Origin: Escherichia phage JK1
DNA length: 64,000 nt
Sequence record: MZ436830.1
Reading direction: 5' to 3' (one strand)
Shown: in pieces, positions 24,369-61,980 of the stretch
Numbering within the stretch: the first letter of the stretch is position 1
Layout: each line of letters opens with the position of its first letter
Translations under genes and position numbers: made by a program
Notes under the pieces: model-generated
Databases searched by the model: none
Told to the model about the DNA's origin: nothing
What the model saw: the letters and a program-made list of their open reading frames with translations, nothing else

Positions 24369-24734
24369 TTAAATATCAAATTCATTAAGAACTACATCAA
24401 AGATTGCTTCGAGATGTTCAGGTTTAGCTCTGTTACTCAGAATATGACGAATCCAAGTTTTAACCAAAAGCTTGCGATTAGCACCATTCCAACAAGGATG
24501 AGTCCCTAAATCGCGTTGACGGAAATCATCATCCAGAGCGATTTTAAAGTTGGAACCTTCCATTGTGATTGAAACCGTGATGCCATTTTCAAATCGCATA
24601 TAAACGTAATTAGGAGTCATATACTGTTCAATTTCGCATACTGATCCATTTTGATGTTTCCAAAGGCAGATAGTATCAATAGAACCTGCAATACCATTAG
24701 AAACATATTTACGTTCAAAGTTGATGTAGTTCAT
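24369..24734 (-). CDS. Hypothetical protein (121 aa)
   Basis: Start moved to ATG 24734 with GGAG RBS (ORF-track start is TTG). Confidence 0.6.
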   Translation of the reverse strand: MNYINFERKYVSNGIAGSIDTICLWKHQNGSVCEIEQYMTPNYVYMRFENGITVSITMEGSNFKIALDDDFRQRDLGTHPCWNGANRKLLVKTWIRHILSNRAKPEHLEAIFDVVLNEFDI

Positions 24735-24770
24735 TTTATTCTCCAAGATGTTTAATTGCGGTACAGGTAT

Positions 24771-24799
24771 ATAATATCATATCCTGTACCAAAGTAAAC
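24771..24799 (-). promoter_or_regulatory. Early promoter (GTTTAC-N17-TATTAT) inside inverted repeat
   Basis: -35 at 24794-24799, -10 at 24771-24776; flanked by GGTACAGG/CCTGTACC inverted repeat. Confidence 0.45.
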
Positions 24800-25172: not shown

Positions 25173-25199
25173 TTTATTCTCCTTTGTTTGTGTAAGATA

Positions 25200-25229
25200 A
25201 TACTATCACAAAGGAACTATACTGTAAAC
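25200..25229 (-). promoter_or_regulatory. Early promoter candidate
   Basis: GTTTAC at 25224-25229, TAGTAT-like -10 18 nt away; ~30 nt upstream of ATG 25172. Confidence 0.4.
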
Positions 25230-25282
25230 AACTTTATGCAATCTTTGGAAAATAAAAAAGGACTCCCGAAGGAGTCCTCAAC

Positions 25283-28061: not shown

Positions 28062-28091
28062 TTTGTTTTCCTCATTTGTTTTGGTAGAGCT

Positions 28092-28121
28092 ATAATATCA
28101 CAACTCTACCGTAAAGTAAAC
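28092..28121 (-). promoter_or_regulatory. Early promoter (GTTTAC-N18-TATTAT) inside inverted repeat
   Basis: -35 28116-28121, -10 28092-28097; GGTAGAG/CTCTACC inverted repeat around -10. Confidence 0.45.
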
Positions 28122-28123
28122 TG

Positions 28124-39785: not shown

Positions 39786-39811
39786 TTTATTCTCCTCAAG
39801 TTGATAAGGCT

Positions 39812-39841
39812 ATAGTATCATTACCATAGCCCGTTGTAAAC
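39812..39841 (-). promoter_or_regulatory. Early promoter (GTTTAC-N18-TACTAT) inside inverted repeat
   Basis: -35 39836-39841, -10 39812-39817; GGCTAT/ATAGCC inverted repeat. Confidence 0.45.
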
Positions 39842-39843
39842 AA

Positions 39844-40761: not shown

Positions 40762-40804
40762 ATTATTTTCCTCTTTAATCATCAGCAGTATTGCCGATAG
40801 TTGT

Positions 40805-40834
40805 ATAGTACCACAGTCCTTGTGGTATGTAAAC
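40805..40834 (-). promoter_or_regulatory. Early promoter, member of repeated promoter-leader cassette
   Basis: GTTTAC (40829-40834) -N18- TACTAT (40805-40810) with conserved GTGGTACTATACAACTATC block. Confidence 0.5.
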
Positions 40835-40845
40835 TGTTTTGTGAA

Positions 40846-40884
40846 AAAATTTTTGAAATAAAAAAGGGGACCCTAGAGGTCCCC
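40846..40884 (-). terminator. Intrinsic terminator after gene 32
   Basis: GGGGACC-CUAGA-GGUCCCC hairpin then UUUUUUAUUU on - strand. Confidence 0.75.
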
Positions 40885-58079: not shown

Positions 58080-58120
58080 TTTCTAATCTCCGTAATTCTG
58101 TATCAGTAGTTGATAGTTGT

Positions 58121-58150
58121 ATAGTACCACAGTATGCTTTGGTTGTAAAC
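58121..58150 (-). promoter_or_regulatory. Early promoter of motA (repeated cassette member)
   Basis: GTTTAC (58145-58150) -N18- TACTAT (58121-58126). Confidence 0.5.
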
Positions 58151-58160
58151 CGTTTTGTGA

Positions 58161-58201
58161 AAAAATTTTAAAATAAAAAAAGGGAGAGCCTCGGCTCTCC
58201 C
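58161..58201 (-). terminator. Intrinsic terminator between gene 52 unit and motA promoter
   Basis: GGGAGAGC-CGAG-GCUCUCCC hairpin followed by UUUUUUUAUUUU on - strand. Confidence 0.6.
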
Positions 58202-61396: not shown

Positions 61397-61424
61397 TTTC
61401 TGTTCCTCCGTAGTTGATAGGGTA

Positions 61425-61454
61425 ATAGTACCACGGAAGAACAGTCTTGTAAAC
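61425..61454 (-). promoter_or_regulatory. Early promoter (repeated cassette member)
   Basis: GTTTAC (61449-61454) -N18- TACTAT (61425-61430), leader CAACUACGGAGG. Confidence 0.45.
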
Positions 61455-61903: not shown

Positions 61904-61930
61904 TTTTACTCCTCCGTAGCTGATAGTTGT

Positions 61931-61960
61931 ATAGTACCACGGTCCTTGTGGTATGTAAAC
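61931..61960 (-). promoter_or_regulatory. Early promoter (repeated cassette member)
   Basis: GTTTAC (61955-61960) -N18- TACTAT (61931-61936), leader CAGCUACGGAGGAG. Confidence 0.45.
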
Positions 61961-61980
61961 CATTTTGTGAAATTTTTTTT

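Follow-up and report, generated by a model that had tools for sequence, protein, structure and literature searches.

The three inverted repeats that surround the -10 element of early promoters in this phage are composite cassettes of the published PeSL (promoter-early stem-loop) type of T4-like phages, and they match also its subclass of stem-loops that overlap the -10 element; the concept is thus a known one. The explanation that we think probably accounts for the repeats as a whole is that, within such a cassette, the hairpin forms on read-through RNA and likely serves to attenuate or pause transcription and/or to form a barrier that sets the 3' end of the upstream transcripts.

Three early promoters embedded in PeSL-type cassettes

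The window (the whole stretch of 64,000 nucleotides that was analysed) belongs to a Tequatrovirus with 96-98% identity to many T4-like coliphages, and the 5-kb stretch around sites 1 and 2 is found at 96-98% identity in hundreds of Tequatrovirus genomes. The early genes of the window lie on the minus strand and include 11 GTTTAC promoters in their regions. Placement by way of the T4 record puts site 1 between 30.8 and 30.7, site 2 between cd.3 and cd.2, and site 3 between frd.2 and frd.1. All three of the perfect inverted repeats named in the preliminary description are present (Table 1), with the position given there being exact at site 3 and starting one nucleotide off at site 1 (24761 for 24760) and at site 2 (28082 for 28083). 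They do bracket early promoters, as had been claimed, since on the minus strand each repeat wraps around a T4-type sequence GTTTAC-N17/18-TA(T/C)TAT. The site 1 promoter has the same sequence in T4, and the site 2 promoter is the equivalent of T4 Pe133295, named in the T4 record as 'early promoter Pe133295 between cd.2 and cd.3'. The intergenic gaps at the three sites measure 57-62 nt, and each cassette has the upstream stop codon a few nucleotides before the -35 element and a GGAG or GAGG plus ATG downstream, a layout (stop codon, promoter, ribosome-binding site and ATG) that is also found across relatives.

Table 1. Positions of the repeats, promoters, predicted hairpins and terminators in the window
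Feature	Position	Strand	Description	Basis
Site 1 repeat arms	24760-24767 and 24783-24790		GGTACAGG and CCTGTACC	sequence
Site 2 repeat arms	28083-28089 and 28104-28110		GGTAGAG and CTCTACC	sequence
Site 3 repeat arms	39808-39813 and 39826-39831		GGCTAT and ATAGCC	sequence
Site 1 early promoter	24771..24799	-	GTTTAC 24799-24794; -10 TATTAT 24776-24771	pattern scan
Site 2 early promoter	28092..28121	-	GTTTAC 28121-28116; -10 TATTAT 28097-28092	pattern scan
Site 3 early promoter	39812..39841	-	GTTTAC 39841-39836; -10 TACTAT 39817-39812	pattern scan
30.7 homologue ribosome-binding site and start	24732..24744	-	GGAGAATAAAATG	sequence
Site 1 hairpin	24759..24791	-	8-bp outer stem GGTACAGG/CCTGTACC; inner AUAUG/UAUAU stem, one bulge, AUAU loop	
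Site 2 hairpin	28083..28110	-	12 bp, GGUAGAGUUGUG/UAUAGCUCUACC, AUAU loop	
Site 3 hairpin	39807..39832	-	11 bp, GGGCUAUGGUA/UACUAUAGCCU, AUGA loop	
Fourth promoter-embedded repeat	25180..25215	-	TCCTTTGT/ACAAAGGA, 8 bp, around the -10 of the 25229 promoter	
Fifth promoter-embedded hairpin	61400..61444	-	15 bp, -22.7 kcal/mol, z = -4.2; spans the -10 of the 61454 promoter	
Canonical terminator upstream of the 25229 promoter	25258..25279	-	GAGGACTCCTTCGGGAGTCCTT then TTTT, 30 nt upstream; 'stem-loop upstream of the promoter' arrangement	
Canonical terminator upstream of the 40834 promoter	40866..40884	-		terminator scan

PeSLs were described by Arbiol et al. (2010) as intergenic units of a strong sigma-70-like early promoter and a stem-loop, with five positional subclasses, one of them overlapping the -10 element, and with G-T pairs noted in the stems (PMC2839356). 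The cassettes recombine and in doing so shuffle small genes, and one PeSL stem-loop matched the rrnB T1 terminator in lowering lacZ expression; the experiments on terminator activity and on recombination that forms mini-circles concern RB49 and phi1 only, and the terminator assay used one G/C-rich RB49 stem, unlike the stems found here (PMC2839356). PeSLs were extended to the PST/T4 pair by Comeau et al. (2014), with the promoter consensus TTTACW-N17-TAYWAT (PMC4122927). That consensus is matched by all three of our sites, which are intergenic, form stable hairpins with their centre at the upstream edge of the -10 element, and belong to a type of unit that is repeated in small-gene regions and accompanied by indels and replacements between relatives. 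The likeness extends to the order of the elements (stop codon, AT-rich stretch, sigma-70-type early promoter, ribosome-binding site and ATG, together with a stem-loop), to the subclass of stem-loops that overlap the -10 element and carry G-T pairs in their stems, and to the dispersal among small non-essential genes, at the indel or replacement junctions of close relatives. There are also differences, in that the legend of the PST/T4 figure puts the stems 'just upstream of the promoter' (PMC4122927) and the layout bracketing the -10 element is illustrated for phi1 and RB49 with stems of the form G(n)...C(n), whereas the stems here have neither a common sequence nor a U-tract. The PeSL identity had not been recognised in the preliminary description; among the roles listed there, the hairpin on read-through RNA is supported and the palindrome on DNA is not.

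Folding of the intercistronic transcripts, the check suggested at that stage, predicts stable hairpins at all three sites, with sense RNA energies of -16.1 kcal/mol (z = -4.98), -16.3 kcal/mol (z = -6.31) and -14.7 kcal/mol (z = -5.49) for sites 1, 2 and 3, respectively, against -15.0, -9.1 and -10.1 kcal/mol for the antisense strand. The helices comprise 11-14 bp and the loops 4 nt. It had been stated that the -10 hexamer sits in the loop of the repeat, and this is roughly right, except that the 3' arm of site 3 covers the last two bases of the hexamer and that the RNA stems of all three sites run through its 3' half by means of G.U pairs. By consensus, transcription is predicted to start at the A of CTATCAA, 7 nt past the hexamer, a position inside or beyond the 3' arm; consequently, only RNA initiated upstream holds both arms, and the transcripts of the embedded promoter lack the 5' arm. 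This position of the start site, the stable sense folds, their greater stability compared with the antisense ones and the tolerance of G.U but never of A.C in the stems together bear out the proposal that the hairpins belong to read-through RNA between cistrons.

The stem of site 1 is kept in 14 related loci, in which one inner pair varies between A-U, U.G and U-A and a C-to-U change gives a G.U pair. Upstream of frd.1 three different stems occur across phages (GGCTAT/ATAGCC, GGGTAGTAG/CTATTACCC and ATGGGGC/GTCCCAT). A search of Rfam gave zero matches anywhere in the window.

Pairing beyond chance and on one strand

The repeats might in principle be a by-product of chance or composition, the AT-rich promoter consensus happening to complement itself, although we give this hardly any credence. 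The inner four to five pairs are drawn from consensus bases (GUGAUAUUAU), and the inner stem, being made of the promoter consensus (TGTGATAYTAT), could thus be partly a by-product of the promoter. When all positions outside the hexamers were shuffled, the probability for each promoter was 0.008 at site 1, 0.025 at site 2, 0.066 at site 3, a single 6-bp repeat taken alone, and 0.009 at the fourth promoter (25229), with a Fisher's combined p of 0.006 for all 11 GTTTAC promoters of the window. For comparison we assembled 198 distinct GTTTAC...TAnnAT...SD...ATG cassettes from IMG/VR and T4, for which an exact GTTTAC -35 was required, many being retrieved through the GGAGAATAAAATG pattern. Of these cassettes, which are phylogenetically related and not independent, 68 (34%) fold at -10 kcal/mol or below (an arbitrary threshold, as are the other energy thresholds), in contrast to 2.2% of 1522 chimeras in which the 5' half of one promoter was followed by the 3' half taken from another, unrelated promoter, with the position-specific composition retained (binomial p ~1e-60). 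Against shuffles, z is below -3 in 35% of the 198 cassettes, and the loop centres of the set fall in two registers, at about -11.5 and about -14.5 relative to the start site. Moreover, the outer stems occupy non-consensus positions and covary, and orthologous sites retain their pairing through G.U intermediates and double changes. On the chimera control and the covarying outer stems we rejected chance and composition; the repeats are non-random, and far from what chance would give.

By stem sequence, the 68 strong hairpins form no fewer than 18 mutually unrelated clusters. Among 17 promoters with the same register, the share of cells that pair is 88%, whereas shuffles give 67% and slid controls 34-56%; both partners have changed in 11 of the 14 pairs. 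These promoters were, however, picked for folding in that register, and the result shows the diversity of the stems and is no independent proof of pairing. Covariation at a fixed register over all 198 promoters yielded weak, scattered signals only, because the register of the hairpin varies between promoters, and it was replaced by folding each promoter separately together with the chimera control.

The constraint on these stems is also specific to one strand. The minimum free energy of the sense strand is below that of the antisense strand in 121 cassettes, the opposite being true in 72 (p = 1e-5). Counted with a helix picker that is strand-symmetric and penalizes G.T and A.C equally, the internal imperfections of the stems are 31 G.T and 0 A.C. 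They come from 19 distinct helices, and in 8 or more of these the G.T falls in the outer stem, outside the consensus bases. This asymmetry indicates that selection acts on the sense strand only, which fits a role in RNA, most simply in read-through RNA, and speaks against both a cruciform and a palindrome bound by protein; single-stranded DNA tolerates G.T wobble too, and a DNA hairpin of the sense strand is formally possible.

It is accordingly quite improbable, in our judgement, that the repeats act on DNA, whether by binding, as palindromes, a regulator that shuts off the early promoters or by serving as cruciform or recombination signals behind the shuffling of cassettes. Such action would agree with the overlap between the repeats and the promoter core, with the gene replacements that relatives show exactly at these junctions, with the note in the T4 record on an earlier, inverted report of the 14-nt loop of site 2, and with the speculation of Arbiol et al. 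on a DNA-binding protein for the conserved GGGG...CCCC stems of RB49 (PMC2839356). However, the promoters share no common half-site, their stem sequences being unrelated; the strand-specific symmetry is not what is expected of a duplex-binding dimer or a two-sided cruciform; the hairpins computed with DNA parameters are weak (-5 to -8.4 kcal/mol); and the near-identity over about 55 nt of promoter cassettes dispersed in the genome can explain the shuffling. Stems that differ from promoter to promoter and a symmetry confined to one strand also leave the earlier suggestion of protein-binding palindromes unsupported. Nor do the sites show the shared, symmetric half-site of a palindromic operator, given the number of unrelated clusters, the variation of nearly all pairs and the restriction of imperfections to G.T.

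Termination, translation and the stop-codon junction

None of the three sites was called in the terminator scan. They share with intrinsic terminators a G+C-containing hairpin positioned where a gene ends, but the tails of terminators are U-rich, whereas those at the three sites are A-rich; across relatives the tails after the stems are likewise A-rich, and only 3% have at least 5 T in the next 8 nt. Because there is neither a U-tract nor a terminator call, efficient intrinsic termination at the three sites is unlikely, and the canonical intrinsic terminator was rejected as a description of them for the missing U-tract. In the 100 nt that precede the -35 element, a strong hairpin is present at 3 of 67 promoters with a -10 hairpin and at 30 of 125 without one (p = 5e-4). 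The -10 hairpins are hence largely mutually exclusive with separate terminator hairpins upstream, and behave as alternatives to terminators. In the window, the promoter at 40834, which has a canonical terminator of a hairpin and a T-run just upstream (Table 1), has no hairpin bracketing its -10 element, and the promoter of the 30.8 homologue, at 25229, has two structures, the arms that bracket the -10 element and a canonical terminator upstream.

The position of the preceding gene separates the two kinds of promoter as well. The stop codon of a long open reading frame lies no more than 20 nt upstream of the -35 element (median 2 nt) in 54 of 61 promoters with a hairpin and in 40 of 122 others (p = 2e-13), and the bracketing hairpin is thus found at junctions so tight that the promoter adjoins the stop codon of the preceding gene and no space is left for another element. 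Within the promoter, only the spacer and the start-site region are free to vary, and a junction this small can accommodate a hairpin only if these two stretches are complementary.

A hairpin placed between two genes could alternatively control translation of the downstream one. In the T4 genes e, soc, 49 and I-TevI, the hairpin that sequesters the ribosome-binding site holds an internal promoter in its 5' arm, and this paradigm has been described (PMC3014915). The likeness to our sites consists in the promoter being inside the hairpin and in the structure forming on upstream transcripts and being absent from those of the internal promoter; the difference is that the T4 promoters are late or middle ones with the ribosome-binding site or AUG in the helix, whereas at the three sites the ribosome-binding site is outside it. 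Two further promoters of the window do fit the paradigm. The repeat at the 25229 promoter, which was absent from the preliminary description, covers with its 3' arm the AAGGA ribosome-binding site of the 30.8 homologue, and in the hairpin at the 61454 promoter the spacer CTGTTCTTCCGT pairs with ACGGAGGAACAG, the ribosome-binding site (GGAGG) of a small downstream open reading frame. As modelled, the latter hairpin is an early-promoter version of the translational trap of T4 genes e and soc, and at both promoters the ribosome-binding site is predicted to be fully paired in read-through RNA and free in the promoter's own transcript. Pointing the same way are the CTCC or CCTC that a class of T4-like early promoters carries at -28 to -24 and a weak CUUUA/UGAGG extension in the fold of site 2. 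Nevertheless, we consider translational control an unlikely function of the hairpin, since GGAG is unpaired in the predicted read-through folds of sites 1 and 3, and the accessibility of the ribosome-binding site in the read-through RNA of the 198 cassettes is 0.46 for native sequences and 0.42 for chimeras (p = 0.07), a difference in the wrong direction. With the site unpaired at two of the three promoters, paired only in a weak, G.U-rich extension at the other, and showing no excess over chimeras, sequestration was rejected as a general explanation for the three sites.

The CTCC or CCTC of that sizeable class of T4-like early promoters (loci L033-L151, from IMG/VR contigs) comes right after GTTTACAT or GTTTACTT and has the character of an anti-Shine-Dalgarno motif, its predicted pairing with the downstream GGAG or GAGG occurring in read-through RNA only. 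Less than 30% of the ribosome-binding site is unpaired in 76 of the 198 cassettes in read-through RNA, compared with 11 in the promoter's own transcript.

Proposed role of the hairpins and exchange of the cassettes

Returning to the hairpin on read-through RNA, we propose that the variable stretches of the promoter, namely the spacer (about -26 to -18) and the start-site region (about -6 to +5), have been made mutually complementary. RNA polymerase arriving from an upstream promoter would transcribe both arms and the read-through RNA would fold into a hairpin of 11-14 bp, while the transcripts of the embedded promoter would begin in or after the 3' arm and lack it, so that the hairpin would act on the upstream message only. 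Its role is probably that of an attenuator or pause site without a U-tract and/or that of a barrier to 3'-exonucleases; once an endonuclease had cut in the A-rich leader, such a barrier would define and stabilize the 3' end left on the message of the upstream cistron. A candidate for this cleavage is RegB, which might cut at the GGAGAATAAAA site 17-22 nt downstream and leave an upstream RNA that ends in the hairpin. The strong cleavage consensus of RegB is GG*AGRAYARAA (PMC3014915), and it is matched by the downstream GGAGAATAAAA at sites 1 and 3, as it is by GGAGAATAAAATG at the ribosome-binding site and start of the 30.7 homologue. Attenuation and RNA stability are both plausible as functions and are inseparable by sequence alone; our search of the literature gave no usable T4 map of 3' ends, processing or termination, and no study of these intergenic regions.

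Outside the T4 group, close parallels are the REP elements of E. coli and the 3' hairpins of T7 early mRNA, which are likewise intercistronic hairpins without a U-tract in polycistronic RNA and could likewise block 3'-exonucleases after an endonucleolytic cut downstream. They differ in sharing no sequence with our sites, for which the part of a stabilizer is one that we infer. The early 3' sites of T7 are substrates of RNase III with longer, bipartite helices.

A more far-reaching possibility, which we put forward tentatively and regard as doubtful, is that the hairpins centred on the -10 element are a distinct, strand-specific RNA device, different from terminators and present in about one third of T4-type early promoters, that masks an AU-rich stretch prone to RNase E and protects the upstream 3' end after a cut by RegB or RNase E. 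If this were true, the device would arise whenever a promoter abuts the preceding stop codon, and the stability of each early message would be uncoupled from that of its neighbours. Such a reading goes beyond the termination and recombination proposed in the PeSL papers. What our results add to those papers is quantitative, that is, the presence of a hairpin in about one third of T4-like GTTTAC early promoters, the constraint on the sense strand only and the lack of U-tracts, together with the replacement of separate upstream terminators by these hairpins where intergenic space is minimal. A promoter nested in a structure that only upstream transcripts can form would be a compact arrangement, and one that insulates neighbouring early genes in a dense phage genome.

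The cassettes may also matter as portable, conserved junctions for swaps of accessory genes among T4-type phages, and as a secondary consequence their dispersed and conserved sequences could supply short homologies for gene swaps between related phages. At site 1 the flanks diverge more than the cassette does. The sequence upstream of cd.2 is replaced in four of five relatives by a completely different one without a promoter, although the cd.2 proteins encoded behind it are 100% identical. Compared with window positions 28062-28123, four relatives from IMG/VR (L016-L019) have a cd.2 protein that is 99-100% identical, no promoter-hairpin cassette and no homologue of cd.3, and a different upstream gene in them reaches the start codon of cd.2, which places a breakpoint of replacement at the cassette.

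A further difference between relatives was observed in the gap between frd.2 and frd.1. In T4 (L001, 24022-24090 on the minus strand) and in two relatives from IMG/VR (L021 and L032), a hydrophobic mini-ORF of 22 codons (MFAPYIMAAVMLVCLYLLIKAC) with a GGAG of its own stands between a PeSL and frd.1 and is unannotated in the T4 record; in the window (39786-39843) the mini-ORF is missing and a different PeSL directly abuts frd.1.

Within the window itself, three dispersed early promoter cassettes on the minus strand (at about 61905-61975, 58095-58165 and 40780-40850) are near-identical over about 55 nt (TTTCACAAAAnnGTTTACA...GTGGTACTATACAACTATC), and in two of them the stretch separating the -35 element from the -10 element contains a short CCAC(A)...(T)GTGG stem. 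Judged from this near-identity, the three are potential substrates for homologous exchange.

Finally, the T4 record carries at 133300-133313 (L152, 3901-3914) a misc_feature that reads 'inverted complement of previously reported sequence; corrects the early promoter Pe133295'. The feature corresponds to window positions 28090-28103, which is exactly the 14-nt loop between the arms of site 2. This loop therefore stood flipped in the older T4 sequence, either through a sequencing artefact related to the hairpin or through a real inversion between the arms.
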